This document shows positions 2,023 to 52,223 of a DNA stretch of 52,223 bases, one piece after another. The stretch spans positions 1 through 52,223 of IMG/VR virus record IMGVR_UViG_3300036376_000008. One strand, written 5' to 3'. The position numbers were made by a program, and so were the translations under genes. Within the stretch, counting starts at the first letter, position 1; every line of letters starts with the position of its first letter. The DNA comes from a virus. Taxonomy: Duplodnaviria > Caudoviricetes. The notes beneath the pieces are model-generated. The model saw nothing but the letters and a program-made list of their open reading frames with translations, ran no database searches and was not told where the DNA came from.

Positions 2023-4029
2023 ATGAGCAACGACTTTGAATCCTGCATCCCCGAAATTCCGCTGAAGATTTCCATCGAGCCGGACATCTGCGACCTCGCG
2101 ATCCTGTCCGCGCTGCGCCGTGTCGGCCTGCCCGATGCGATCCGCGCCGCCAGGGAGGACCTGCCCGCACTCATCGGCGTCACGCTGCCGACCGATTACG
2201 AAGTTTCCACGGCGATCGGCGTGATTCGCAGTGTCTTTTTCGAAGGCATCGACACGATGCCGGATCGCAAGACCCTGACGACCGACACCGTCCTGGTTCT
2301 CCTCGGCATGCGGTCGCAAGGCAGCGCGCTGAGCAACCCTGGGCTGACCGTTGTTGTTGCCGACGCCGGCGAGGTCGAGCGCGGCGCGGTGTGGCATGTG
2401 TCCGAACTCGCGGACCGCAGGATCGACGTGACGGTATGCGCGTCCGACATCCGGCGCGCGATCGCGCAAGCGTATCCCGAACTCGCCAACGAGCCGTTCG
2501 AGATCCACGACAACGCGTCTGTCAATGACCTCTCGAAGTTCCTGCATGAGAGCGTCACTGGTCATCAGCTCGTCCGGGCCGTGAACAAGATGGCCAAGCG
2601 CCGTCAGGCGAAGAGCGAGCAGCTGAAGCGCGATGCAGAGCCTGCGAAGACTGCCAGGAAGATCACTTTCCCGGTCACCGAGCCTGGCGGCATCTCGCTG
2701 TCCGAACTGCCGGGATTCTCGTCTGCGCGGCCGTGGGCAATGCAGTTGGCTTCCGACCTGCAGGCATACCTGCGCGGTGAGATCCCGTGGTCGGAGATCG
2801 ACCGCGGCGCCCTGCTCGTCGGCCCGCCCGGATGCGGAAAGTCCACGCTCATGCGCAGCCTCGCATCCACGGCCGGCGTGCCGATGATCTTCACCGGGTT
2901 TGCCGACTTTTCGAACGTGGGCGAAGGCCACATGGGAACGATCCTCAAGGGGATCTCGGCCCTGTTCACGCAGGTCGATGATCTCCTGCAGGAGCGCCGG
3001 GCCGTCATCGTGGCGATCGATGAGATCGACTCCGTGCCGCCGCGCGGAACAGGAGACCACTCCGACTACTGGGGTCCTATCGTCAACGCGTTCCTGGCTG
3101 CGATCAACGGCCGTCCGGGCATGATCGTCGTTGGCACAGCGAACAGCGCAAACGTAGACCCGGCGCTTGTTCGCCCAGGCCGGATGGACCGCGTCATCAA
3201 GATCGCGAATCCTGGTAGCGACGAGATCGCGCCCATCCTGCGCCACCACATCGGACACGATGTTACCGGCCTGGGATCGGTCTCTGGCATCCTGCGCGGC
3301 TCGTCCGCTGCCGACCTGGAGCAGATCGCTCGCTCAGCCCGGCGACGCGCCCGCAAGTTCGGTCGCATCCTGAGCATGGACGACATCAACGCTGTGATCG
3401 ATGAGATGCGGCCCCGGATCGTTGATGCTGACCTGGCGTACCAGATCGCGTTCCATGAAGCCGGGCATGCCGTCGCGCAGCTCTCAAGTCCGCATGTCGT
3501 TGGCGTCGATATCACGCTTTCCGAAACCTACTGCGCTGCCCGCGCGGAGTGCCGGGACGGATCCGATTTCCAGTCGATCGGATACTTGAGCTCGCGCCTG
3601 GTCGAGCTTCTTGCCGGCCGCGTTGCCGAGCGCAGGCATTGCGGAACCGTGAGCCGCGGAGCCGGTGGTCAGGAGGCCGAGAGCGACTTGCGCCGGGCTA
3701 CGAGGATCGCTATCGAGCTTGAGACGCAGCACGGCGTCGGCGTCACCGGACTCGTCCACGTGACGGATGACAAGGACCACGCGCTGCTGAATCCGCGCAT
3801 CCATGATGCCGTGCGGAGGAGGCTCGAAGACGCGCAGACCGCAGCCGAGCGGCTGATTGATGATCGATGGCACGTTGTCGGCGCACTGGCACTCGCCCTG
3901 GTACGAGACCGTTACATCTCGTCTGAGCGCGTGAAGGAGATCGTGGAGCGGGCAGATGCCGTGAAGCGTCAGGCCGACGTTGTGCTTGCGGCCGATCTTG
4001 ACGAGGCGGCGCTCAGCGAGAGCCTGTAA
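2023..4029 (+). CDS. Soluble FtsH-like AAA+ ATPase with peptidase M41 domain
   Basis: Walker A GPPGCGKS, Walker B IDEID, SRH 'DPALVRPGRMD', zinc motif HEAGH, 'LLAGRVAE', 'SDL'; no N-terminal TM helices. Confidence 0.88.
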   Translation: MSNDFESCIPEIPLKISIEPDICDLAILSALRRVGLPDAIRAAREDLPALIGVTLPTDYEVSTAIGVIRSVFFEGIDTMPDRKTLTTDTVLVLLGMRSQGSALSNPGLTVVVADAGEVERGAVWHVSELADRRIDVTVCASDIRRAIAQAYPELANEPFEIHDNASVNDLSKFLHESVTGHQLVRAVNKMAKRRQAKSEQLKRDAEPAKTARKITFPVTEPGGISLSELPGFSSARPWAMQLASDLQAYLRGEIPWSEIDRGALLVGPPGCGKSTLMRSLASTAGVPMIFTGFADFSNVGEGHMGTILKGISALFTQVDDLLQERRAVIVAIDEIDSVPPRGTGDHSDYWGPIVNAFLAAINGRPGMIVVGTANSANVDPALVRPGRMDRVIKIANPGSDEIAPILRHHIGHDVTGLGSVSGILRGSSAADLEQIARSARRRARKFGRILSMDDINAVIDEMRPRIVDADLAYQIAFHEAGHAVAQLSSPHVVGVDITLSETYCAARAECRDGSDFQSIGYLSSRLVELLAGRVAERRHCGTVSRGAGGQEAESDLRRATRIAIELETQHGVGVTGLVHVTDDKDHALLNPRIHDAVRRRLEDAQTAAERLIDDRWHVVGALALALVRDRYISSERVKEIVERADAVKRQADVVLAADLDEAALSESL

Positions 4030-6388: not shown

Positions 6389-7660
6389 CTACGCCTCGGT
6401 CGCGTCGCTCGTCACCCGCTGCCTAGTGTTGAATGCCGTTGGCAGCCCCTGGGCGCCGCGTCCTTTCCCGGTCCCCGGGTGCGGCTTGTGATCCCCCTGC
6501 ATCGGCAGGTACTCCTCCGGGACGTCGGCCAGCTTGACTGGCGGCGGAACCGGCAATCGGCGTGGCGGCATGAGGCGCAGCGGAGTGTCGATCGGCGCGG
6601 CCAGAAGTTGCACCCTGATCGCCCTGGCAAGGATCTCGGCGATAAGGGATGGGACCGCGTTCCCAAGCATCCTCTGCATCTCGGTGCGGCCGCACTCGAT
6701 CTTGAGCCCGTCCGGGAAGGTCTGGATCCGGCACATCTCCTCGAAGGTGAGCTTTCGGCTGTTCCAGTGGAACGGCCCGATGGCGCTGCCGGGCTGCGCC
6801 TGGACCGTCCAGGATGGTAGCCGCTTCGAGAGCTTCAGAAGAAACGACCAGTAGCGGGTGCGCCATCCAAAAAGCGGAAGGCCTCCACCGCGCGGAGTGT
6901 GCCACAGGTAGTTCTCGCCTTCGGGAATGGAGGGCAACAGGTCGCCCCACTTCCCCCCGATGCGCAAACCATCAAAGTCGTTCGGCTCGGCGAGGTCGCC
7001 TATCGCGTCCCATGCCGTCATGAACGGCTCGCGCGGCCCGGCGAAGAGGTCCCGCGCTCCTTTGTCGACACCAACATGCGTCGGCTCAGGGAAGCGGAAC
7101 TGACGGCCGTCCCGCGAGCCGACGATGAAGACGCGCTCGCGGATCTGCGGGACGCCGTATTCAACACATCTGATGACGCGCCATGTAGGCTGATAGTTCG
7201 TGCCCACGGCCTCGTTGATGTTCCGGACCCCCTCCAGCAGCAGCTGAAGGCCTTCGTCCTTGCCCTCGTACGCGAGGCCCCCAACGTTCTCTAACAGGAA
7301 GACCTTGGGCCGCGTATCCCGCAGGACCCTCAGGTATGCGGCGAGCGTGTTGGCTCGCGGGTCGTCCAGGCGCAGTGTGTCACCCCGGACCCAGTATGAC
7401 GACTTGGAGAACGGCTGGCAGGGAGGCCCGCCAATTAGCATGTCGGCCTCGCCCGCTGCCAGCCTCCCTTGCCGCAGGATCTCCTCTGACGTCACCTGAT
7501 GGACATCACCCTCGATCACCGCCCAGTCCGGCCGGTTGAGGCGCATCGCCCGGCAAGCGAACCGGTCCCACTCCAGGGCCACGCGCGTTTCGAAACCGGC
7601 CTCTTCGAACCCAAAGTCCAGGCCGCCGATGCCGCTAAAGAGACTGATTGTTTTGAACAT
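6389..7660 (-). CDS. DNA (cytosine-5) methyltransferase
   Basis: Motifs FSGIGG, GGPPCQPFS, ENV, PQIRERVF, RIQTFP, GNAV. Confidence 0.95.
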   Translation of the reverse strand: MFKTISLFSGIGGLDFGFEEAGFETRVALEWDRFACRAMRLNRPDWAVIEGDVHQVTSEEILRQGRLAAGEADMLIGGPPCQPFSKSSYWVRGDTLRLDDPRANTLAAYLRVLRDTRPKVFLLENVGGLAYEGKDEGLQLLLEGVRNINEAVGTNYQPTWRVIRCVEYGVPQIRERVFIVGSRDGRQFRFPEPTHVGVDKGARDLFAGPREPFMTAWDAIGDLAEPNDFDGLRIGGKWGDLLPSIPEGENYLWHTPRGGGLPLFGWRTRYWSFLLKLSKRLPSWTVQAQPGSAIGPFHWNSRKLTFEEMCRIQTFPDGLKIECGRTEMQRMLGNAVPSLIAEILARAIRVQLLAAPIDTPLRLMPPRRLPVPPPVKLADVPEEYLPMQGDHKPHPGTGKGRGAQGLPTAFNTRQRVTSDATEA

Positions 7661-9330: not shown

Positions 9331-9599
9331 GCTGCGCACCCCTCTTCGAAGCCGAACTCGGCGTCTTTAGCGCGCTCAATCCAGGGGTCGTCATCGCGGT
9401 GCTCGTTGTCGATCCTCCGCTTCATGCTAGCGACCATCTCCTTCAGCGTATCCTCCCCGCTAGAGAAGCTGTCGAGGGCGATCCATCCATCGCTGAGCCG
9501 GGTGACCGTGAAGTATGTCATCATCCACCCTCCCAGGCATTGCTCCCGGGAGACACGGATCTCGTAGCCGCGATGCTGCGCGGTCAATTCCTTGCTCAT
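9327..9599 (-). CDS. Hypothetical protein
   Basis: Coupled ORF in the leftward operon, with RBS. Confidence 0.65.
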   Translation of the reverse strand: MSKELTAQHRGYEIRVSREQCLGGWMMTYFTVTRLSDGWIALDSFSSGEDTLKEMVASMKRRIDNEHRDDDPWIERAKDAEFGFEEGCAA

Positions 9600-9814
9600 G
9601 GTCTCATCCTTTCTTTCCCGGAAATCACATCTCGCGCCCGCGTCGTCAGCCGGATCTTCTCGTCGTCCCGCAGCCGGCCGGGGTCCGCGATCAGAGCGAG
9701 CGACGCCGCTTCGTTGACCGGCAGGCCGCGCTCGGTCGCATCGCGCAGCGTGATGCCGTTGCGGGAACCTGCGGCGGCGAGGAGTTCGAGGATGGCGCGG
9801 TCGCGCTCACTCAT
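9596..9814 (-). CDS. Hypothetical protein
   Basis: MSERDRAILE...; overlapping start/stop junctions. Confidence 0.6.
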   Translation of the reverse strand: MSERDRAILELLAAAGSRNGITLRDATERGLPVNEAASLALIADPGRLRDDEKIRLTTRARDVISGKERMRP

Positions 9815-10073
9815 CGTTGCCCAGCTCCACGTCCAGGAACTCGACCTGCAACCTCGCGATGCCAACGAACAACGTGTGCGAACTCCCAGGCTCGCCCTGC
9901 CACGATGTCCGGATGCGCCCGACGCCATCGACGGTCACGACCGCGACCGCCCGCGTGTCTCCGGCGCGCGCGATCTCAAGCTCGGCTTCAAGCGTCTCGA
10001 CGGCCGGAGCGTATGGCTCAGGCGGCGTCTCTGCGACGAGGCGCGGCGGCAGCGTGATGACGTTGTCGCTCAC
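9807..10073 (-). CDS. Hypothetical protein
   Basis: Coupled 88-aa ORF. Confidence 0.65.
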   Translation of the reverse strand: MSDNVITLPPRLVAETPPEPYAPAVETLEAELEIARAGDTRAVAVVTVDGVGRIRTSWQGEPGSSHTLFVGIARLQVEFLDVELGNDE

Positions 10074-10333
10074 GGCACGACCTCGCGGCCCGGCAGCACG
10101 ATCTCGAACCCATCCGATTCAGACAGCGCAAGCCAGGCGATCAGGCGCCCGGCTGCGGCCCTGCGCTCCATCGCATAGAGCGCGGCGACCGTAGCGGCCG
10201 CGTAAGCCGGCGATGCCCTGGCGCGGTCGTGAACGGCGACCTCGGCCGTCACGTCACCGTCCGCGTAGCCCTGCGCATGCTCCATGGCGGCGGCGTTCAT
10301 GCTGGCGCGGACTGGGTAGAGAAAGTCGCTCAT
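10070..10333 (-). CDS. Hypothetical protein
   Basis: Coupled 87-aa ORF. Confidence 0.6.
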   Translation of the reverse strand: MSDFLYPVRASMNAAAMEHAQGYADGDVTAEVAVHDRARASPAYAAATVAALYAMERRAAAGRLIAWLALSESDGFEIVLPGREVVP

Positions 10334-13781: not shown

Positions 13782-13820
13782 TGGAAAAATTACTTTGAAA
13801 ACGGAAGGATTCGGGAATGC

Positions 13821-13866: not shown

Positions 13867-14208
13867 TCAGGCCAAGGGCTGCTCGGTGAAGCCGATGATG
13901 ACGGACGGGTCGGCATCCTTGGCCATGGCGGCGAGATCTTCGTCCGACACGTTGCCGAGAATGATGTCTTCCGGCAGCGCGATCCGTTCCGGCTGAAACA
14001 CGGCCCTGTTCGCGGCCATGAAACCTTCCTGAATGTGCGTCCGGGCAATCGACACCCAGCCGTAATCGAGGCCGGCCGTGGACTGTAGCGTGTCGAGCTG
14101 ACGCAGGACGCGCTCTTCGAGCTGCTTGTTTTGGTTGACCAGGTCGATCTTGTCCTGGCTCTGAGACTTGTAGCCGGCGACTGGGAGGCCGGCGATCGGG
14201 GTCGTCAT
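13867..14208 (-). CDS. acb2: Acb2-like anti-CBASS cyclic-nucleotide sponge
   Basis: 'GYKSQSQDKIDLVNQNK...W.SIARTHIQEGFMAANRAVFQP' matches the Acb2 pattern GYR.LSQ.EID.MN..K...RW.AI..T..Q.G.MA..RA.AQP. Confidence 0.75.
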   Translation of the reverse strand: MTTPIAGLPVAGYKSQSQDKIDLVNQNKQLEERVLRQLDTLQSTAGLDYGWVSIARTHIQEGFMAANRAVFQPERIALPEDIILGNVSDEDLAAMAKDADPSVIIGFTEQPLA

Positions 14209-22150: not shown

Positions 22151-22546
22151 ATGACTGAGCGAAGCAGGGAGGAGCGCGCGGCGTTCCGGGCTGAGGTCGT
22201 GGCGCGCCGGGCAGCCAAGGCAGCGCAGGAGGCCGTGGAGACCGCTGATGACGGTGGCAACAATCCTCCGGATGATTCCGCAGCCGCGATAATGGTCCGC
22301 TTCAGCACGGCGCTCTGGGGACGTCGCTGGTACACGGAGGCCGCCGAGTGCATGGGGGTTTCCGTCCGTACCGTTCACCGCTGGATGAAGGGACACGGAG
22401 AGCCTGACGCCAGGAGCATGGCTTACCTGGTCAAGGAGGCCAGGCTGCGTCTCAGGCAGCTTCATGCGGTACTGCACGGCGATGTCGCCCCAAGCGCGCA
22501 GCGTGCGTTCCTGGTGGATGGTCCGGCGATGCGTGGTGGCATGTGA
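22151..22546 (+). CDS. HTH DNA-binding protein (related to 4084 and 4937)
   Basis: 'ALWGRRWYTEAAECMGVSVRTVHRWMKG..EP'. Confidence 0.72.
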   Translation: MTERSREERAAFRAEVVARRAAKAAQEAVETADDGGNNPPDDSAAAIMVRFSTALWGRRWYTEAAECMGVSVRTVHRWMKGHGEPDARSMAYLVKEARLRLRQLHAVLHGDVAPSAQRAFLVDGPAMRGGM

Positions 22547-22667: not shown

Positions 22668-22722
22668 GTGACCTGCGCGCGGGTTGCCATGACCTGCGCC
22701 CACAAGACACCGACAATGTCAA
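22668..22722 (+). repeat. 55-bp element with two TGACCTGCGC repeats, copy A
   Basis: Gap-free match to 45158-45212. Confidence 0.8.
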
Positions 22723-43355: not shown

Positions 43356-43978
43356 TCGCCGGCCGCCAACGACCGTGACAGCTCATCTGCGATGATTGGA
43401 CCCAGGTCCGCGGCGGCGCTCTCCCCGACAACGCCATAAAAATCGAAGCGCGGCTTGTAGTCGATTTCCGGCACGAGCAGCGCGAGCAGTTTTGACGACT
43501 GGCCCGGGATCTCCTCGATCAGAAGAAGGCTTCCGGGCTGCTGCCTCGATGGCGCCCAGCCGACGCGCTTCCGAGCCAGAGCCTTCGACAGGAAGTCCCG
43601 TGGCAGGTTACCGTAGCGATCGACCTTGGCATCGGGACCCGGAATCAGGACACCTCGGCTCGTCGTTGCGTAATCGCCGGCAACGCGCTCTCCTCCGAAG
43701 ATCTCAAGCTCCAGCCACTGCGCCTGCTGCCGCATGATGGTGATCAGGACAGCCGGATCACGCACTCCGTCATTGCGGGCAGGAAGGAAGGACGCGCCCT
43801 GAGCGGTGAACGGAACCGGCCTATCGAACACGCGAAGCATCGCGGTCTGAAGCCGCAGCTGCGTGACCCGGGCCCACCTGTTCAGGCCTGCGACGATTCC
43901 GTCAGACCAGTCCTTCCGGATGTAGGTGTCGGCATCCCGGTCGAACTCGGAGACATCAAGGTCGATGTCGATCCGCAT
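43352..43978 (-). CDS. Tail-completion/gpZ-like morphogenesis protein (tentative)
   Basis: 'GLNRWA...MLRVFDRPVPFT', 'IFGGER', 'YKPRFDF'. Confidence 0.5.
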   Translation of the reverse strand: MRIDIDLDVSEFDRDADTYIRKDWSDGIVAGLNRWARVTQLRLQTAMLRVFDRPVPFTAQGASFLPARNDGVRDPAVLITIMRQQAQWLELEIFGGERVAGDYATTSRGVLIPGPDAKVDRYGNLPRDFLSKALARKRVGWAPSRQQPGSLLLIEEIPGQSSKLLALLVPEIDYKPRFDFYGVVGESAAADLGPIIADELSRSLAAGD

Positions 43979-44235
43979 CACTCGACCTCGATCTTGACCT
44001 TGACCCCAACGGCCTCTGCAATCGAGAGCGCGCGCGTCAGCGAGAAGAGGTTGTAGTCGCCCTGGATGATCGCGGAATGCGCAATCTGACGGAACGACGG
44101 CAGGCGCTTCTGGATGTCGACAGGCTTCATCCGGCGCTCACAGACACGCCTTGCAACGGCATCAAGCACGCTCTCCTTGAGCGCGCGCTCGGTGTCTGAG
44201 ACGTGGGGTCTAACTGGTCCACCAAAATTCGGCAT
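43978..44235 (-). CDS. XRE/HigA-like HTH protein
   Basis: 'SAIIQGDYNLFSLTRALSIAEAVGVKVKIEV'. Confidence 0.6.
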   Translation of the reverse strand: MPNFGGPVRPHVSDTERALKESVLDAVARRVCERRMKPVDIQKRLPSFRQIAHSAIIQGDYNLFSLTRALSIAEAVGVKVKIEVE

Positions 44236-44394: not shown

Positions 44395-44745
44395 TCACGG
44401 CGTCGGCAACCGATCATCCCAGTCGGACGACACGGTCTCGTGCCGCTTCACCCGCGACAGCAGCGCCGACATGGTCTCCCGCCTGTCGTGACCGCGCGCA
44501 ACGAGCAGCGCGATTGCCCGGCGCAGGACGGAGAGACCGCTGATCCTCGCTTCCCGGCGATCGGGCCGTGGCATCGCCTCAGCCGTCTCATCGAGTTCCA
44601 GGACGAACGCCGCCGACAGTGCCCAGTCGCAAGCACGGCCGTCCGGACGCCGGTTCTCGCGCAGCCGCCCGCGCCACGTCCTCGCCCGCTCCGCGACCTC
44701 GCGACGCTGCCTGGCTTTCCGTGCGGTGTAGGTTTCATCGTTCAT
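44395..44745 (-). CDS. Hypothetical basic protein
   Basis: MNDETYTARK... portion of the longer ORF. Confidence 0.55.
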   Translation of the reverse strand: MNDETYTARKARQRREVAERARTWRGRLRENRRPDGRACDWALSAAFVLELDETAEAMPRPDRREARISGLSVLRRAIALLVARGHDRRETMSALLSRVKRHETVSSDWDDRLPTP

Positions 44746-44886
44746 GCGATCATGGAAAGCCCTGAGATCGCAAGCCACAAGCACCCATTCGCCGCGTGAC
44801 GGCGAATGTGATTTTCGCATTGGATTCAACGCGTTAACGACTTGCTCGAGGTTTCGTGCTAGGCATGGTCTCGAAGGAGAAATTCC

Positions 44887-45144
44887 ATGTCTGCATCGTC
44901 CATCGTCGGCGGCTTCGATGGCCTGTTTTCCGGCATCGCGCAGGCCGCAGCGATCTCGCACATCAACGCCATGAACCGCGCGCCGGAGAGCAACGGCGTC
45001 AATGCCGTCATCCGCGTCAGCCGCGCCCTGCAGCGCGAGCGCTCCGAGCATGCCCGGACCCGCGCTGCCCTGGACGAGGCTCTCGCCCGCGCCGAAGCCG
45101 CAGAGGCCATGCTTGTGAAGCTTGCCGAGGTCGGAGTGATCTGA
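44887..45144 (+). CDS. Hypothetical coiled-coil protein
   Basis: Strong RBS AAGGAG. Confidence 0.65.
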   Translation: MSASSIVGGFDGLFSGIAQAAAISHINAMNRAPESNGVNAVIRVSRALQRERSEHARTRAALDEALARAEAAEAMLVKLAEVGVI

Positions 45145-45157
45145 CGGCGACTTGCGC

Positions 45158-45212
45158 GTGACCTGCGCGTAGATCGCCATGACCTGCGCCCACAGGTGGT
45201 CACGAAAGTCAA
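45158..45212 (+). repeat. 55-bp element with two TGACCTGCGC repeats, copy B
   Basis: Gap-free match to 22668-22722. Confidence 0.8.
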
Positions 45213-45373
45213 TCGGGTTTTACGGTCTCGCAACCCGATTTCTTGGGACTCCGCAGGATAGGCATTTCGGCGGGCCGGGATTGCGAATGCGATCCTGGCT
45301 CTCTTTCATGCTCAAGACAAACTAAAGGCCGTGGATCGCTCCACGGCCTCTTTTCATTCCCGGCGCGACCGTC

Positions 45374-46018
45374 TCAGTGAACCATCCGCAGCGACGGATG
45401 ATCGACATCGCCAACGTCAGCGCGGAGCTGAGGCCGAGCCTCGCGCGCCTCGCGGTCCCGGCGCAGCCTGTCGGCCACCGCGGCCGCAGCCAGTCCGAAC
45501 GCCTTCCGGGCGTCAGCATGCTCAGGCGCGTTGAAAAACGCCCTCGGCGCCACGCCAGGCTCGATGACCTGCTCCGGGATCACATACTTGAATGGCCCGG
45601 ACTTCGGCACGTCCTGCACGCCGGCGATTGCCTTGCGGCCGGCCAGATGCTCTTCCTGAGCCGCCCTGGGCGCACGCAGGACGGCAATCGCCTCGTCCTT
45701 CGACATCCCGATAAGCCAGGCCTGAACGCCGTTCGGAAGGCCGCGCATGCCCGGCCACGGCGTCCCGATGCCGATCGACGCGACGCATCCGATCGCGCGG
45801 TTGATCATGCTGTCAGGGTCGTAGCGATCACCGATCTTGCGCTCGTCGCCCTGCGGCTGCGCGAGAGCCTCGTCAGCGATCTCGTCTGCAGCGCCGGCCG
45901 CGAAGCCGGGAACGCCGAGCAGCTTCTGGATCAGCGCGATGACGCCGTCACCGAGCGCGCCGATGGTGTTGAGAACGGCCACGATGGCGCGGCCGATAGC
46001 GTAGAGAATGGACTTCAT
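45374..46018 (-). CDS. Hypothetical protein
   Basis: RBS GGAG; 214 aa. Confidence 0.65.
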   Translation of the reverse strand: MKSILYAIGRAIVAVLNTIGALGDGVIALIQKLLGVPGFAAGAADEIADEALAQPQGDERKIGDRYDPDSMINRAIGCVASIGIGTPWPGMRGLPNGVQAWLIGMSKDEAIAVLRAPRAAQEEHLAGRKAIAGVQDVPKSGPFKYVIPEQVIEPGVAPRAFFNAPEHADARKAFGLAAAAVADRLRRDREAREARPQLRADVGDVDHPSLRMVH

Positions 46019-46082: not shown

Positions 46083-46553
46083 TCAGAACCGATTCGACTT
46101 CATGCGATGAGCATCGTACTCGTCGCGAGTCATCATTACGGTCGATCCATTCACGCGAACCGGGATGCACCGATCATCGTCGTCATCCCGGCGCTCGCGC
46201 AACTTCCCTCTGGCCCACTTGCCAAACATTCTCAGGAAGTCGCCGCGACACGCCTTGCAGCAGGTGACGCTGTAAACGGACTGATCGACAAGCCGGATCG
46301 GAGGAACAGGATCCTGCTCAATCGTGATCCTGGTGACGTTGCCATCCTGATTGACGACATGCCTGTCCTTGGTTCCACCGCTGTACCGGCGAGTCACTCC
46401 CCAGATCGCGGCGTCAAATTCGACCTCCCTGAAGATGGTGCTTTTGTCAGCTTCAGGAACAACTTCATGGACATCGTAAAAGCATTCGACGGATACGTGC
46501 CGCGAGTCCTCCATATCGCCGTTGCAGACCGGGCAGATCTCTACATTGCTCAT
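46083..46553 (-). CDS. Hypothetical protein with split CxxC pairs
   Basis: CPVC ... CCKAC. Confidence 0.6.
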   Translation of the reverse strand: MSNVEICPVCNGDMEDSRHVSVECFYDVHEVVPEADKSTIFREVEFDAAIWGVTRRYSGGTKDRHVVNQDGNVTRITIEQDPVPPIRLVDQSVYSVTCCKACRGDFLRMFGKWARGKLRERRDDDDDRCIPVRVNGSTVMMTRDEYDAHRMKSNRF

Positions 46554-46567
46554 GATTGGCGCTCCTG

Positions 46568-47803
46568 TCATCGCTCGTACGACGTCTGATACGATCCGTT
46601 GGCGTATCCGTCGGGCAACTTCTTTGCCTGCCCTGCAGCCAACGCCGCGTCGATCTGGGCGCGCATCTGAGCCGCCACGTCGCGCGGGTTGACTGGATTC
46701 CTGCGCGTTCTTAGGACGGCCGTCGAGACGCGCTGCGGCACCCGCGGAACCCGGATCTCGAAATGATCTGCCACCGGCCGGTCGGACCGCGCGCGACGCT
46801 CTGTTGTCTTGGCCTGAATGACCTCAAGCCGGGCCCGGCGCTTGGCATTCCGCGCTGCCTCGCGCACGGCTTCAGTTGCCTCGCGCGCCACCCTCTTCGC
46901 CGCCTCGGCGGCAGCGCGCCTCTTGGCAGCGGCCGCAGCCTTTGCAGCGTTTCTCTGTGCCTGCTTCTCGGCCGCGAGAACGGCCCTGGCAGCGCGCAGC
47001 TCCTCGGCCCTCTGCGCCTTTGCCGCGGCCTTGGCCTCGCCCTTCGCCGCCTGCGCTGCTTTCCTGGCCTCGCGCCTTTCGGCGTACGACATCGCCTTGC
47101 GAGCGTTGGCGGCGCCAATGACGCGCTTCTTCATCTCGGGAGACATCGGCTTCCGCTTGATGCGGATGCCCAGATCCATCATGCGCTTGCGCAGTGTGAC
47201 GTGACTGACGCCGAAGCGATCCGCGACCTCCTGCACGTCGGGCCGGTCGAGCGGGTCCGCAAAGATCCTGCGCAGCTCCGCGTTGTCGTCCTCCGACCAG
47301 GCTCGGTTGCCGCGCGGAAGCTCGATGCCCTCGCGCATCGCCATGCTGAACATGGAGCCGTAGGTGCGGCCGACAGTCTTTGCGATCACGTACCGGTTCG
47401 TGCCGGCTGCGGCGAGCACGCGGACCTTCTCGATCTCGTCGGCCGACCAGTTCTTCGCATGGCCGCGGAACCCGGCTCCGCTGCTCGGCAGCGTGATGCC
47501 GTGCTTCGCCGCCTTCTCCTGAATCGTCGCAAGCGGCCGGCCGAGTGCGGCCTCGATCGACTTGCGGTCGGGCAGCGTCGCCGCGAGCTCGCGCAGCCGG
47601 TCAACCTCGGCGTCGGACCAGACAGCGAACTTGGTCGCAAAGCGGATGCCGTCCTTCGACGCGCGGCCCATGACGCCTGTGTACGGCCGTCCAAGAATCT
47701 CCGCGCACTGCTTCCCGGTTTTGCCGGCCGCAGCCAAGTTGCGCAGCCGCTCGATCTCGGCAGGCGACCAGTCCTTCGGACCGCGACCGGTGGACTTGGT
47801 CAC
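46568..47803 (-). CDS. Multi-HTH regulator A (4 GcrA/Myb-like repeats)
   Basis: Four W-S-x-x-[ED]...GI units, an Ala/Lys/Arg-rich coil and a conserved C-terminal motif. Confidence 0.75.
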   Translation of the reverse strand: MTKSTGRGPKDWSPAEIERLRNLAAAGKTGKQCAEILGRPYTGVMGRASKDGIRFATKFAVWSDAEVDRLRELAATLPDRKSIEAALGRPLATIQEKAAKHGITLPSSGAGFRGHAKNWSADEIEKVRVLAAAGTNRYVIAKTVGRTYGSMFSMAMREGIELPRGNRAWSEDDNAELRRIFADPLDRPDVQEVADRFGVSHVTLRKRMMDLGIRIKRKPMSPEMKKRVIGAANARKAMSYAERREARKAAQAAKGEAKAAAKAQRAEELRAARAVLAAEKQAQRNAAKAAAAAKRRAAAEAAKRVAREATEAVREAARNAKRRARLEVIQAKTTERRARSDRPVADHFEIRVPRVPQRVSTAVLRTRRNPVNPRDVAAQMRAQIDAALAAGQAKKLPDGYANGSYQTSYER

Positions 47804-48408
47804 GCCGCGCTCCTCTTGCGCTCAAGCTCATCGCGCATCTCGACGAGGATTCCGTAGACGGACGGATCCGGCATGCCCTCGCTAAGGTGCCAGACCGGCT
47901 CGAACGTTGCCGCCCGGCCACCAGTCCTCCACCGCGGATAGTCCGTGACGCCGCGCTGCTTCAAGGCGACGCGAACGACATGCTCCGACACGCCTTCGTG
48001 GAGCGCCGCAGCCTTGATGCCGCCCACCGACATCACGATGTCGACCAGCTTCGCCGCGTACCACGTCTCCAACTTCAGCTTGGGACCGCGCCGCCCGCGC
48101 TTCGGGACGCGCTTCGTCAGGCCGTGCCGGATCGCGAGAGACGTCAGGTACGAGCGCGGCTCACCGGTCTCATCGGAGACGTCGGAGACAGGGCGAGAGC
48201 GCATCATCTCGACGAGCTCCTGCTCACGCTCCGGCGTGTTCCTGCACCGGTGCGGAGCGCGCTGCTTTCCGGCCTGGCCGGCGCCAACGCGGGCAAGAGC
48301 GGACAGCACGGTTGTCGAGACGCCGGGCCAGCGATCCTGAAGGTCGCGGAGGCTCGCTCCAGACGCGACGGCGGCCGCAACGCGCTGCGGGTTCGGGAGA
48401 TCGCTCAT
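47800..48408 (-). CDS. HTH-containing protein (2-3 degenerate HTH units)
   Basis: 'VSDVSDETGEPRSYLTSLAIRHGL', 'IKAAALHEGVSEHVVRVAL'. Confidence 0.6.
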   Translation of the reverse strand: MSDLPNPQRVAAAVASGASLRDLQDRWPGVSTTVLSALARVGAGQAGKQRAPHRCRNTPEREQELVEMMRSRPVSDVSDETGEPRSYLTSLAIRHGLTKRVPKRGRRGPKLKLETWYAAKLVDIVMSVGGIKAAALHEGVSEHVVRVALKQRGVTDYPRWRTGGRAATFEPVWHLSEGMPDPSVYGILVEMRDELERKRSAA

Positions 48409-48734
48409 CGCGTCAGCCCCTTATCCCGGCAATACGAGACCCAGCTCTCGATCACCGTCCGCGCAAGCTCGGCGTCGCTGTCGTTGACGTGATCCGCAGC
48501 CGAGTAGCCATCGGTGCGCGACATCTCCTGCAGGCACCAATCGCGCTGCTCGACCGTCATCGGCTCCGTGCGACCGCAGTAAGCCCAGGCGCGCAGGACG
48601 CGTTCTTCCGGTGCGCAGACGCATGAAGAGCTGACCGCGTCAGCAATCCATCCATCATCAAGAACAGTCTCGGGCTGCGACCACTCCATGCCGCAGGCAC
48701 ATGCTACTTCGATACCGTGAAAAGGCGTGGTCAT
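48405..48734 (-). CDS. Hypothetical protein
   Basis: RBS AGGAG; first gene of the leftward arm. Confidence 0.6.
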   Translation of the reverse strand: MTTPFHGIEVACACGMEWSQPETVLDDGWIADAVSSSCVCAPEERVLRAWAYCGRTEPMTVEQRDWCLQEMSRTDGYSAADHVNDSDAELARTVIESWVSYCRDKGLTR

Positions 48735-48883
48735 CGGCTTGCTCCTTCCGAATCCCCTCGACACCAAGGATGAATCAGATTTTCCTTGTCCGCAATATTT
48801 TGAATTTCGAAGGAATTAAGCCTGTAAACGCTGGCCGAAAGTTAAGTCATTAATTCTGGCGCAGATTTTTCCTTGAGAGACCG

Positions 48884-48912
48884 TTGACAGGATCGAGAAC
48901 TCGTCGGATCAT
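48884..48912 (+). promoter_or_regulatory. Sigma70-like promoter for the rightward arm
   Basis: TTGACA-N17-GATCAT in an AT-rich divergent intergenic region. Confidence 0.45.
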
Positions 48913-49020
48913 CCTTGCACGACGAGCCACGTTGGCTCCGGGTGCGTTCGTGAGTTCCGAAGTACGCAGCCTGTACGCTCAATCGAGCGTGTCACGCAAT
49001 TTGGCATCTGGAGAGAACTT

Positions 49021-49167
49021 ATGAACCAGGTCACCGATGACCTGCTCGCACGGATTCGCCGCCTGCGCGAATACGTTGAGGGCAAGCGCGCTGCTCGCAA
49101 GCAGCGCTACGACAACAAGCAGGACTACTTGGACTTCGTGAAGACGAACAAGGAGGACTCCAAGTGA
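49021..49167 (+). CDS. 48-aa protein (not in the ORF track)
   Basis: MNQVTDDLLARIRRLREYVEGK...; RBS GGAGAG; GTGA overlap with the next gene. Confidence 0.6.
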   Translation: MNQVTDDLLARIRRLREYVEGKRAARKQRYDNKQDYLDFVKTNKEDSK

Positions 49168-49409
49168 GCGCCCGCGCTTTCATCTGGAACTTCCAGTCCG
49201 GCCGCGTCGACGTTACCGAGAACACGCTCGGCGGCACGGTCGAGATCATCGCGATCGGGCCGAAGGACGCCTTGGCTGAGTACGCCGACAGGCTGCTCTC
49301 CGACTACCACCCGATGGGCTACGGCACGACCGTGGACGACCCGAAGCCGGTCGGCATGGGCGAGGGCGCGTGGCGCATGAATGCGCGCCGGTATTCGAGC
49401 TGCGGGTGA
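49164..49409 (+). CDS. Hypothetical protein
   Basis: RBS AGGAGG; coupled. Confidence 0.65.
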   Translation: MSARAFIWNFQSGRVDVTENTLGGTVEIIAIGPKDALAEYADRLLSDYHPMGYGTTVDDPKPVGMGEGAWRMNARRYSSCG

Positions 49410-49413
49410 CGCC

Positions 49414-49662
49414 GTGAGCGCGACGACAAGCACCATCGAGACGATCCACGGCCCGGTCGAAGAGACCGTTGAGCAGCGCAGCCCCGGCCGGATTTCGCGC
49501 ACCGCCACCGGCGACCGAAAGGCCGTGGAGGAGTGGGCATACGAGATGCGCAGCCTCTACGGATGGACGCGGTGGGGCGGGTGGATCGGCCCTGTCGAGA
49601 ACCTGCAGGACGGCCAGGCGCGCTGCCAGTGCGTACACAATCGGGTGGAGCAACGCGGATGA
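49414..49662 (+). CDS. Hypothetical protein
   Basis: In operon; weak similarity to the preceding ORF (Y.P.GYGT vs MRSLYGWT). Confidence 0.55.
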   Translation: MSATTSTIETIHGPVEETVEQRSPGRISRTATGDRKAVEEWAYEMRSLYGWTRWGGWIGPVENLQDGQARCQCVHNRVEQRG

Positions 49663-49988
49663 AAGTCCACGTCACCGTTCACTCGATCGCCCGCTACGCG
49701 CAGCGCGTCCTGCGCACTCACGACGAGCGCCTGGACGACGAGTCCGTCCTGGCCGACCTGGGCGAAGAAACGATCGAGCGTATCCGCGCCGCGATCTTGG
49801 ACGTCTGCGCCGATGTCGCCCGCGTCGGCGGCAGAGGCATCACCTGCGGCGGCATCGTCTACGTGATCGATGCCGGCAGGATCGTCACCCTCTATGCGAC
49901 TGGCGCCGTCGATCTCGATGCGCGCCCGGAGCGACTGAAGCAGGCGCTGAAGGCGTGGCGCCCGGCCGAGATCGGAGCGGCGGCATGA
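49659..49988 (+). CDS. Hypothetical protein (RelE-like fold possible)
   Basis: 'VTVHSIARYAQRV ... YVIDAGRIVTLY'. Confidence 0.6.
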   Translation: MKVHVTVHSIARYAQRVLRTHDERLDDESVLADLGEETIERIRAAILDVCADVARVGGRGITCGGIVYVIDAGRIVTLYATGAVDLDARPERLKQALKAWRPAEIGAAA

Positions 49989-50323
49989 GCATCTCCGACA
50001 CCGTCCGAGAGATCATGGAGAACGCGATCAACGAGATCGAGTATCTCGACTGCGAACTCCTGGCGATTGCAATCAACGAGCGCATCTGCACATCGCTCTA
50101 CATCTCGTTCGCGGGCTGCACCAAGGTCACGATCTACGAACCTCATCCAAGCGGCCACGTGCAGACGCTGTACTCGTTCACGGACCGCTCGCACCCGGAC
50201 ATGGACGACATCGACCTGACCTACGCCGTCGATGCCATCGTCGGAATCCAGTCAATCGACAAATGGAAGCGCAGCCGGAAGGCGCGCAAGGCGCGCAAAG
50301 AGCGCAAGGAGCTGAACCAATGA
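49985..50323 (+). CDS. Hypothetical protein
   Basis: ATGA-coupled on both sides. Confidence 0.6.
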   Translation: MSISDTVREIMENAINEIEYLDCELLAIAINERICTSLYISFAGCTKVTIYEPHPSGHVQTLYSFTDRSHPDMDDIDLTYAVDAIVGIQSIDKWKRSRKARKARKERKELNQ

Positions 50324-51609
50324 GGACCGCCAACGCGAAAAACTGGTCACAGACCGAGGTCGAGACAATCCGCACGATGGCCGCAGCCGGGGCGACGAAG
50401 AAGGACGTGGCCGAGGCCCTGAAGCGCAACATCTTCAGCGTGCGTTTGCAGGCAAACAAGCACGGCATCAAGTTCCACCGCATCTCGAACGCCGGCCGGC
50501 CGTGGTCGAGGGAGGACGAGGCCACGCTGCGCGATCTTGCCGCGTCCGGCATCGGACTTGGCGAGATGTCGAAGCGCCTGTCGCGCGAGATCTCCGGCAT
50601 CCAGAAGCGCTGCCGATTGCTACGCATCAAGCTCAAGCGCGCCGAGTTTTCGGCTCTGAACTGGACGCCGGAGTTCATCGCGCAGATCGAGAACAACTTC
50701 CGCGGCGACAGCCCGAAGTCGATCCGCGAGATCGCCCGCAGCCTCGGCGTCTCCCACGCCACCCTGATCCGCGGCATGGCCCGATACGGCATCGAGAAGC
50801 AGCCCACGGCGTCCACGGTCTCTGCCGCCGCGCGCCGACAGGAGAGCATGGTGCGCGGCCTTCCCGACGCCATCCGTGACGCCATTCTTCTCGACTACGC
50901 GAACGGTGTTCCGCTTGACGTCATGAGCAAGCGATACGGCCGCACCGGGCGGCACCTGGCGCACATTGCGGTCAACGCAGGCGTCCGCAGGTTGACGCCG
51001 GCGAACCAGATCCACCCGGACGTGAAGGCGGCGATCTTGGCCGAGGTCGTCCGCAGCGACCGGCGCGCGGTACAGGACATTGCCGAGGCGCACGGTGTGG
51101 CCGTCAGCTCGATCAAGAAGATCGCCACGCGCGCCGGGGTGAGGATGGCAGTGCGGATCATGGAACGCGGGCCGGACGAGCCGAAGCATGAAGGATCGAT
51201 CTGGACGCCGTCCTTCCTCGCCCAGGTCGGCGCGGCCTGGTCGGGCGGCGTGCCGACGCAGGAGATCATGCGGAAGTTCAAGCTGACGAAAGGCATGCTG
51301 CTCTCGGCCATGTTCCGCGCCGGGATTCAGCGCACCCTGGCGCCAAAGGTTCACAAGCCCAAGCAGCCGCCAAAGCCGCGGCCGAGGCGCGAGACGGTCA
51401 CCGAGGCGCACCGGGCGCCCATCGTGATCTCGCCCACCTACGCGACGCCAGGCGCGGTCGGAACACGCCGCCGCCCGGTCAACCCGCGTGAACTCGCCGC
51501 CGAGATGCGCGCCGCGATCGACGCCAAGATCGCGGCCGGCGCGGTCACCAAGCTGCCGACGATGTGGGCGAGCGGATCCTTCGTCAGCATCTACGGCGCC
51601 GGAGCCTGA
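50320..51609 (+). CDS. Multi-HTH regulator B (about 6 GcrA/Myb-like repeats)
   Basis: WSQTEVE.., WSREDE.., WTPEFI.., two degenerate units, WTPSFL..; C-terminal motif shared with 46568-47803. Confidence 0.75.
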   Translation: MRTANAKNWSQTEVETIRTMAAAGATKKDVAEALKRNIFSVRLQANKHGIKFHRISNAGRPWSREDEATLRDLAASGIGLGEMSKRLSREISGIQKRCRLLRIKLKRAEFSALNWTPEFIAQIENNFRGDSPKSIREIARSLGVSHATLIRGMARYGIEKQPTASTVSAAARRQESMVRGLPDAIRDAILLDYANGVPLDVMSKRYGRTGRHLAHIAVNAGVRRLTPANQIHPDVKAAILAEVVRSDRRAVQDIAEAHGVAVSSIKKIATRAGVRMAVRIMERGPDEPKHEGSIWTPSFLAQVGAAWSGGVPTQEIMRKFKLTKGMLLSAMFRAGIQRTLAPKVHKPKQPPKPRPRRETVTEAHRAPIVISPTYATPGAVGTRRRPVNPRELAAEMRAAIDAKIAAGAVTKLPTMWASGSFVSIYGAGA

Positions 51610-51611
51610 CG

Positions 51612-52223
51612 ATGGTTGACCTGCACCTCATCCGCGGCCGCATCGCCGCCGCCCAGGCCGAGCTGAAGGACGCGCTCCGGGAACTCGATGAAGCCCTGGC
51701 GAAGGATGGGCCCCCGGTGCTTGGCTACATGCTTCCGGTCGTGTTCCCCGACCTTGCGCCCGGCGAACCGGAGATCGAAATCCCGGAAGGCATTTCGAGC
51801 GGACCCGATCCTGAGCCGCCGCCGCCGCGCCACGGCAAGTTCGACCTGAGCGACTGGGACGATCCGTTTGCCGACGTGGACGAGACGCCGGTCGTCGTCG
51901 TCCAGGAGCGCCGTGTACGCGTCCACACGCCACCGGTTCCGTTCCGCGGCGAGGTGCGCCCGGACCCGGCTATTGACGGCGAGGATGTGATCCCTGATCT
52001 GCCGGCCGACGAACCGAAAACCGTCGAGCCCAAGGCCACGGAACCTGCGCCGGCCAGGCCGACCGTCAGGCGCACGCCGCGCCCGCTGCGGCCTCCGGCA
52101 CCGGAGAAGCTGAAGAGCCTGATCGCGCTGACCGGAGAGCTGCCGCCAAGTGTATCGCACACGCGGGCGCCTGGACGGCCGATCGTGCAGGCGGCTGACG
52201 AGGCCGATGAGATTCCGTTCTGA
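51612..52223 (+). CDS. Pro-rich disordered protein ending in an SSB-like tail
   Basis: N-terminal coil, P/E/D-rich body, C-terminus DEADEIPF. Confidence 0.65.
   Translation: MVDLHLIRGRIAAAQAELKDALRELDEALAKDGPPVLGYMLPVVFPDLAPGEPEIEIPEGISSGPDPEPPPPRHGKFDLSDWDDPFADVDETPVVVVQERRVRVHTPPVPFRGEVRPDPAIDGEDVIPDLPADEPKTVEPKATEPAPARPTVRRTPRPLRPPAPEKLKSLIALTGELPPSVSHTRAPGRPIVQAADEADEIPF

Follow-up and report, generated by a model that had tools for sequence, protein, structure and literature searches.

What do two related proteins do that are encoded at one end of a prophage, each built from an array of helix-turn-helix (HTH) units and each ending in the same kind of C-terminal tail? The question is raised by the genes for P0001 and P0002 in the IMG/VR provirus record IMGVR_UViG_3300036376_000008, which is 52,223 bp long, is rated 74% complete and was analysed over its whole length (hereafter the window). 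We found that the two proteins are encoded by inner genes of two divergent operons, that their repeated units belong to a fold class shared with GcrA and Myb repeats, and that their tail is rare, is better conserved than the arrays, and contains a core akin to the N-terminal peptide of GP88/phrog_2554 proteins. The reading that we favour, and to which we would give an even chance, is that P0001 and P0002 are tethered DNA-binding regulators, with a tail that docks a shared partner. The two genes and the parts of their products are arranged as follows, with P0002 residues numbered according to its 448-amino-acid (aa) longest open reading frame (ORF):

46568-47803, minus strand: gene for P0001, 411 aa; its GTG start overlaps the stop codon of the gene for P0003 (GTGA).
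47159-47776, minus strand: HTH array of P0001, residues 10-215, with units at 10-57, 60-105, 117-162 and 167-215.
46769-47143, minus strand: spacer of P0001, residues 221-345 (125 aa), helical, of low complexity and Ala/Lys/Arg-rich, with 35% Ala and a net charge of +21.
46577-46738, minus strand: tail of P0001, residues 356-409 (TRRNPVNPRDVAAQMRAQIDAALAAGQAKKLPDGYANGSYQTSY).
50320-51609, plus strand: gene for P0002, 429 aa from the ATG at 50320 (longest ORF from 50263, 448 aa).
50338-51333, plus strand: HTH array of P0002, residues 26-357, six units.
51334-51468, plus strand: linker of P0002, residues 358-402 (45 aa), Pro/Lys-rich, with 20% Pro and a net charge of +7, modelled as disordered.
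51469-51606, plus strand: tail of P0002, residues 403-448, modelled as a helix at 408-424 (predicted local distance difference test score, pLDDT, of approximately 80) followed by GAVTKLPTMWASGSFVSIY.

The true start of P0002 is probably the ATG at 50320, yielding 429 aa, because it overlaps the upstream stop codon (ATGA) and because the database copy of the protein, P0004, begins there. In P0001, the four HTH units start with W-S-x-x-E/D at residues 12, 62, 119 and 169, and residues 1-220 carry a net charge of +13. The W-S/T units of P0002 start at residues 28, 81, 134 and 314 and are accompanied by two degenerate units at approximately 198-243 and 248-295, the array as a whole having a net charge of +27. 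An AlphaFold2 model of P0002, built on a 36-row alignment, contains six three-helix units, with block-mean pLDDT values in the helices of approximately 71-97 (above 90 in units 1, 2 and 6, approximately 83-91 in units 3 and 4, and in the 70s in unit 5); a single-sequence model with a pLDDT of 50.5 was not used. BLASTP aligned the two arrays with 31% identity over 157 aa (E 4e-12) and the two tails with 27 of 54 residues identical (50%, E 1e-13), and by these alignments P0001 and P0002 are paralogues. The original prediction had described two proteins of about 420 aa, with four or about six tandem units, encoded in divergent operons and sharing a C-terminal motif, and in all of these respects it holds. 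It had also spoken of a divergent pair and of a third HTH-array protein at 47800, and here the outcome is mixed. The operons do diverge, from a 253-bp intergenic region at 48768-49020, but the genes for P0001 and P0002 are not adjacent, each being an inner gene of its own operon. The third protein, P0003, could be aligned to the array profile over three units (hhalign, probability 63%, E 7e-5), which is modest support and weaker than that for the other two, and it yielded no match among the PHROGs.

To which family do the units belong? Both proteins match phrog_323, annotated as “transcriptional regulator, D5-like” (P0001 with E 1.9e-21 over three stretches, P0002 with E 4.9e-26 over two), and a phmmer search of 1.84 billion proteins returned 318 representatives at E <= 1e-3, ranging from 104 to 1340 aa in length, nearly all of which match the units alone, via residues 20-180. 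Among 34 relatives scanned, 19 pass the Pfam cut-off for GcrA through repeated matches to the N-terminal 50 positions of the profile. When unit 2 of the P0002 model was compared with 48,161 chains by VIA-align, the best solved match was the DNA-binding domain (DBD) of GcrA (5yiu_A; Z 8.2, root-mean-square deviation 1.4 A, 48 of 49 residues), followed within approximately 1 Z by Tc3 transposase and c-Myb repeats and, lower, by Cbp1. A Foldseek search of BFVD, which holds predicted viral protein structures, retrieved 18 multi-HTH phage proteins at E <= 1e-3, including a “D5 protein”. The likeness to Myb repeat proteins and Cbp1 (c-Myb R1-R3, 1H88 and 1MBG; Cbp1, 2LVS) consists in a tandem of three-helix HTH units with a conserved Trp at the start of each, and is reflected in Z values of 7.0 for one Myb repeat, 6.8 for two repeats and 5.6 for Cbp1, with Foldseek probabilities of 0.94 and 0.89 at non-significant E-values. 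Those proteins, however, belong to other biological contexts and lack the tail, and the score of P0001 against Pfam Myb_DNA-binding (PF00249; 13.1 bits, E 0.11) is under the 24.4-bit cut-off. The earlier assignment of the units to a GcrA/Myb-type HTH is therefore borne out at the level of fold, with 5yiu_A as the top match and more than half of the scanned relatives passing the GcrA cut-off, and “tandem GcrA/Myb-type HTH” is a fair description of that fold, but P0001 and P0002 are not members of the GcrA family. As a class, tandem-HTH arrays are known and widespread in phages.

What sets P0001 and P0002 apart is the tail. It is the best-kept part of both proteins, between the paralogues (50% identity vs 31% in the arrays) as well as between orthologues (56-74% vs 37-52%), and because of this it can be regarded as being under constraint. 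Its 24-aa core, EMRAAIDxAxAxGxVTKxPxG, lies 15-25 residues from the C-terminus and is flanked by the conserved segments RRxPVNP before and GS[YF]xxxY after it. The tail contains one conserved Gly after the helix (AAG) and no Cys, and its helix has a low hydrophobic moment of 0.15-0.19. Aromatic and hydrophobic residues abound at the end, and the extreme C-termini differ between the paralogues (…YGAGA vs …SYER).

The tail is also rare. It occurs in just two of 149 other phmmer representatives, P0005, a P0002-like fragment, and P0046, which is P0001-like; a metagenome scan placed both in one assembly, at loci designated L007 and L008. A tail profile run against 5.8 billion proteins recovered P0001, P0002, P0046 and a borderline protein, P0155 (27 bits, E 0.85). 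In tblastn searches of 50,697 phage records, P0002 found no match, P0001 a single weak one and the 47-aa tail none at E <= 10; a homologue search with P0002 returned its own database copy only, and searches for related loci among genome contigs and viral contigs returned none. Locus L006, which shared a single 15-residue match and no other gene, was dropped as a chance hit. No further copy of the tail core was found in the window, and an ESM Atlas search with the tail gave no usable feature match, its structural rows being unrelated.

The relatives of the tail core turned out to lie in proteins of another architecture. Eleven proteins, P0155-P0165, gathered with a tail profile seeded with P0155, all begin with M-x-I-S-P-E-M-R-A-A-I-D-x-A-V-A-E-G-R-V-T-K-V-P-x-G, and are members of phrog_2554 and Pfam GP88 or short forms consisting of the peptide and one HTH. 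Alignment of four tails with these eleven proteins by hhalign covered 24 columns at 58% identity (96%, E 4.2e-9). Relatives are found in phages of Ruegeria, Rhodobacter, Roseobacter and Sphingomonas, and the protein of Ruegeria phage 45A6 (ANH49055.1) combines the peptide with three HTH units and a GP88 domain and is encoded in an early operon beside a divergent promoter region. Common to both families are thus the 24-aa peptide (EMRAAIDxAxAxGRVTKxPxG), its position beside HTH units of the same kind, and the location of the genes in early operons. In GP88 proteins, however, the peptide is N-terminal and is followed by the HTH units and the Cys-rich GP88 domain, whereas in P0001 and P0002 it is C-terminal and the GP88 domain is missing. 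In the window, the phrog_2554 profile gave a weak match inside the P0001 HTH array (E 4.3e-4, profile positions 66-265) and none that corresponds to the Cys-rich GP88 domain (PF17338). Judged by its sequence relatives, the core of the tail is a portable peptide that occupies a terminus and accompanies HTH arrays in alphaproteobacterial phages. Both the shared tail and its kinship with the N-terminus of GP88 proteins are new, as far as literature and sequence searches reach; we found no literature on PF17338, and a literature search for GcrA in combination with phage or prophage revealed no paper on such array proteins.

How might such proteins work? The closest design is that of Caulobacter GcrA (PF07750; 5YIU for the DBD, 5YIX for the sigma-interacting domain with sigma70 domain 2), which, in the accessible part of PMC5887438, is described as consisting of a DBD (residues 1-45), an unstructured linker (46-107) and a sigma-interacting domain with zinc-binding residues (108-173). 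P0001 and P0002 share with it the fold of the unit and the succession of head, long linker and small C-terminal element, but they have four or six heads instead of one, and the Cys/zinc sigma-interacting domain is absent, since the tails lack Cys and the Cys-motif pattern is not matched. Nine of 149 relatives do carry a Cys motif of the GcrA type at the end of the array, where the tail sits. Because the layout of array, spacer and terminal peptide is that of GcrA, and because of this Cys motif at the tail position, we favour the reading of P0001 and P0002 as tethered site readers. An array of four or six modules would read a long composite DNA site and fix the protein on specific phage DNA, and the tail would dock a partner common to both paralogues, for which RNA polymerase, the proteins themselves, a protease or an antirepressor are candidates. 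Acting in this way, the two proteins would regulate phage transcription, and possibly replication; their targets are probably early phage genes. Compared with the D5-like proteins of phrog_323, which are matched by family profile over two to three units and whose members are basic, repeat-built and taken to bind DNA (in the accessible part of PMC13405049, phage T5 D5 is treated as a phage protein binding a DNA-like ligand), P0001 and P0002 are longer, have the long spacer and the otherwise very rare tail, and differ in that a temperate phage encodes them as paralogues in two opposed operons.

Several observations weigh against this reading. DNA binding, the regulatory role and the docking function of the tail are all properties that we infer. 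Against Pfam GcrA (PF07750), P0002 scores 15.4 bits (E 0.025), under the 26.9-bit cut-off and with an alignment confined to profile positions 2-67, P0001 is not listed, and a six-frame search of the window gave no GcrA match at E <= 1. In the structural comparison of the modelled unit, the GcrA DBD is tied within approximately 1 Z with Tc3 and Myb, and a Z of approximately 8 is common for small helical domains; Foldseek found nothing in the PDB at E <= 1e-3 for the P0002 model, in which the tail is a single helix at intermediate confidence with the remainder uncertain. The E-values of the GP88 proteins are inflated by the seeding of the profile with P0155, the unbiased figures for the link being the 27 bits (E 0.85) of P0155 itself and the independent hhalign alignment. 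The copies in L007 and L008 look decayed, by truncation in the former and a frame change in the latter, and the module is known from two assemblies only, so that the evidence from conservation is thin. Finally, a search of sequencing runs for the region listed no RNA run and one DNA run, which may be the source sample.

The setting of the two genes bears on the alternatives. The remaining features of the two operons are as follows:

48768-49020: divergent intergenic region, with a sigma-70-like site, TTGACA-17-GATCAT, at 48884-48912 on the plus strand.
48799-48814, minus strand: copy of TCCTTC-N4-TTCAAA in the divergent region.
48405-48767, minus strand: first gene of the leftward operon, 120 aa, Cys-rich, of no family; conserved in L007 and L008.
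47800-48408, minus strand: P0003, 202 aa, a divergent three-unit HTH protein, translationally coupled on both sides.
46083-46571, minus strand: 162-aa protein with CxxC ... CCxxC, coupled to the P0001 stop codon (ATGA); absent from L007 and L008.
45374-46018, minus strand: last gene of the leftward operon, 214 aa, with a hydrophobic N-terminus; conserved in L007 and L008.
45324-45351: two-way terminator-like hairpin closing the leftward operon.
49021-50323, plus strand: five small coupled genes 5′ of P0002, coding for 48, 81, 93, 109 and 112 aa, of no informative family.
51612-52223, plus strand: gene that closes both the rightward operon and the provirus record, coding for a Pro-rich repeat protein ending in ...DEADEIPF; its TGA is the end of the window.

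Successive genes overlap by four bases, start codon on stop codon (ATGA or GTGA), at three junctions of the leftward operon and at four of the rightward one; those among the five small rightward genes are at 49164, 49659 and 49985. P0001 is encoded by the third gene of its operon and P0002 by the sixth of its own, neither being promoter-proximal. Pfam and NCBIfam scans of the tails and the neighbouring proteins gave no match. The protein encoded at 51612-52223 consists of repeats of the type EIPEGIxSxPDPxPPPPRHGxFDxSDWxDPFxDVDETP, for which no family was found, and has homologues in L007 (10059-11354, plus strand) and L008 (6505-7605, minus strand), with three repeats each and the ending EDEIPF. 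Its ...DEADEIPF end resembles the acidic C-terminal tip of the bacterial single-stranded DNA-binding protein (SSB), and the protein may mimic the SSB tail, engaging host proteins that bind SSB.

L007 and L008 both carry the module, with homologues of the 120-aa protein, P0003, the 214-aa protein and the DEIPF protein. L007 has kept 46 N-terminal residues of the P0001 homologue, and its P0002-like gene is cut to one HTH unit and the tail. In L008, where an integrase adjoins the module, there is no P0002 homologue and the P0001-like gene changes frame after the first unit. Since L008 lacks P0002 and L007 most of P0001, P0001 and P0002 do not show up as a conserved pair. The P0002-like gene of L007 is preceded by an interrupted second copy of “HTH unit plus tail” in another frame (9414-10177, plus strand; …RKVPVDPRALAAQMRAAIDAKLA, after which the frame is lost), which suggests recombination within tail-coding DNA.

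The prophage itself is of alphaproteobacterial type. Base 1 of the window is the A of the ATG of a serine integrase gene and the last stop codon ends at 52223, so that the P0001/P0002 module, which is contained in the last 8 kb, lies at the integrase-proximal end and would join the integrase gene after excision. The gene content includes an FtsH-like AAA+/M41 protein, a SacI-type restriction-modification pair, a RuvC-like resolvase, an Acb2/Tad1-like protein, an exonuclease, lysis genes and a complete siphovirus-type packaging, head and tail module extending to approximately 43.3 kb. The FtsH-like protein (2023-4029, plus strand; 668 aa, AAA and Peptidase_M41), encoded directly 3′ of the integrase gene, is unusual prophage cargo. 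Members of the Acb2/Tad1 family are phage sponges for the nucleotides used in defence signalling, and the 113-aa protein encoded at 13867-14208 on the minus strand contains the hairpin domain of this family (Pfam E 1.2e-18).

Could P0001 and P0002 be the opposing regulators of a lysogeny switch that operates without CI, one per divergent operon, with the control region between the operons and dispersed sites as their targets? The arrangement invites the idea, as the operons diverge from a region that contains both the sigma-70-like site and a copy of TCCTTC-N4-TTCAAA, and the module adjoins the integrase in the circular form. The statement that no CI/S24 repressor is visible stands in part: a six-frame search of the whole window gave no match to Peptidase_S24 (PF00717) at E <= 1, while a control search detected this family in 12 of 14 genomes, and no XRE-type HTH (HTH_3) exceeded the cut-off, but an 85-aa HTH_37 protein of the XRE clan was weakly detected at 43978-44235 (E 8.7e-4, under the cut-off). 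This protein and a small HTH protein encoded at 22151-22546 are other candidates for a repressor. The switch is further argued against by the internal position of both genes in their operons, by the retention of the leftward module in L008 without a P0002 homologue and the loss of most of P0001 in L007, by the partial completeness of the record, and by the lack of an RNA run with the region among the sequencing runs listed. The setting fits an early control region, and the switch as such, neither supported nor excluded by these data, is in our view unlikely.

The dispersed motifs that had been noted in the window are real, in that they exceed expectation. TTTGTCTCTTTCGT is present in four exact copies vs 0.18 expected (at 1639, 13768 on the minus strand, 19142 on the minus strand, and 22076), each just ahead of the point where a block of genes begins; TCCTTC-N4-TTCAAA is present in three copies vs 0.2 expected (at 13794 on the minus strand, 19235, and 48799 on the minus strand), two of them within 100 nt of TTTGTCTCTTTCGT. 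Both look like candidate phage promoter or leader elements, and nothing links the dispersed motifs to P0001 or P0002. With up to one mismatch, TGACCTGCGC occurs 18 times vs 7.4 expected. Two copies of it, 21 nt apart, lie within a 37-nt element that is found twice (22668-22704 and 45158-45194, 89% identical), once between the small HTH gene and the packaging genes and once just after the 85-aa gene at 44887-45144. At the second position the double TGACCTGCGC site is kept in L008 (11048-11078, minus strand) and in part in L007 (approximately 7071-7101, plus strand). Because it is conserved together with the module, the double site is the best candidate for a binding site; the 37-nt element could be bound by a regulator or by the terminase. 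The 261-aa ORF at 44395-45180 (minus strand) probably corresponds to approximately 140 aa in reality, as homology in L008 is restricted to residues 119-257. Opposite its 5′ part, on the other strand, lies the 85-aa ORF (44887-45144, plus strand), whose conservation is the higher of the two (identities of 58% and 55%). Together they would constitute a small pair of divergent genes, retained in the window as well as in L007 and L008.

Repeated sites of this kind would suit multi-site readers, and a further possibility is that the tail is a self-association element, which would let the proteins loop DNA or bridge it and so organise the phage chromosome, the origin or a partition complex instead of acting as transcription factors. 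The arrays are very basic, and the Ala/Lys/Arg-rich spacer of P0001, with its net charge of +21, resembles non-specific DNA-binding tails; the two TGACCTGCGC copies 21 nt apart, kept as described above, offer an example of a repeated site. Against this stand the low hydrophobic moment of the helix and the fact that GcrA itself, in the accessible part of PMC5887438, acts as a monomer. A predicted complex of the P0001 and P0002 tails scored 0.01, with a mark of 0.32, on alignments of four rows each and with controls not run, and carries no weight for or against self-association. We consider such an organising role rather unlikely.

The tail could instead bind the host RNA polymerase, either in the manner of SutA on the beta protrusion or via sigma-70, which would make P0001 and P0002 polymerase cofactors like GcrA. 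In favour of this is the GcrA-like order of parts (a DBD, a long linker and, at the C-terminus, a small element), as is the GcrA-type Cys motif found in some relatives at the position of the tail, and after the helix, which has approximately 17 residues, come a conserved Gly and a short run of hydrophobic residues. The latter features bear a loose likeness to Pseudomonas SutA (7XL3, 7XL4), in which a helix of approximately 17-20 residues is likewise followed by Gly and a short hydrophobic stretch. According to the accessible part of PMC9300723, SutA is a small RNA polymerase-binding protein that needs G78-G79 for its function and for which there is no mention of a DNA-binding domain; its middle helix is followed by G78-G79 and a strand, and it has an acidic N-terminal region and a wedge loop. 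The tail, by contrast, has a single Gly, is preceded by a linker with a charge of +7 or +21 instead of an acidic region, and is attached to a DNA-binding array, unlike SutA as it is described in that part of the source. A tail profile run against all PDB chains gave eight matches at E <= 10, the best with E 0.4 and none of them SutA, and the resemblance to SutA proposed in the original prediction is thus not sustained. Nor can the tail, which has no Cys, form a zinc site of the GcrA type, and the same core heads GP88-family proteins of no assigned function. Polymerase binding is accordingly, as far as we can judge, distinctly unlikely.

Still less probable is that the tail is a control handle, a degron or a docking site for an antirepressor, by which both regulators would be removed jointly on induction in place of RecA-driven self-cleavage. 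This would agree with the missing S24 domain, with the terminal position of the peptide in both families, at the C-terminus in P0001 and P0002 and at the N-terminus in GP88 proteins, with the aromatic and hydrophobic residues at the end of the tail, and with the FtsH-like AAA+/M41 protease that the prophage encodes at 2023-4029. The proposal is, however, purely inferential, the conserved core lies 15-25 residues away from the C-terminus, and the extreme ends of the two proteins are different. Equally a long shot is a combined scheme in which EMRAAIDxAxAxGxVTKxP serves alphaproteobacterial phages as a portable tag that docks on a single host hub, for which RNA polymerase is the leading candidate. 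HTH arrays bearing the tag would thereby become polymerase-bound site readers like GcrA, and the two paralogues of the prophage, alike in tag but different in array and made from opposed operons, would compete for this hub and constitute a repressor-free lysis-lysogeny switch. The notion that the arrays are leftovers of homing endonucleases was rejected, as the HNH and LAGLIDADG matches in BFVD and PHROG cover the HTH units alone and a nuclease domain is absent.

We return, then, to P0001 and P0002 as tethered site readers with a docking tail. Tandem-HTH arrays are among the commonest unstudied early proteins of phages. Should the tail turn out to be without a partner, the locus would be no more than one further pair of DNA-binding proteins from a phage. 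The binding partner of the peptide, once found, would provide a mode of action for two families at once. If this partner should prove to be RNA polymerase, phages would be seen to have arrived more than once at the design of GcrA, in which a DNA reader is tethered to the polymerase, by means of different docking parts.

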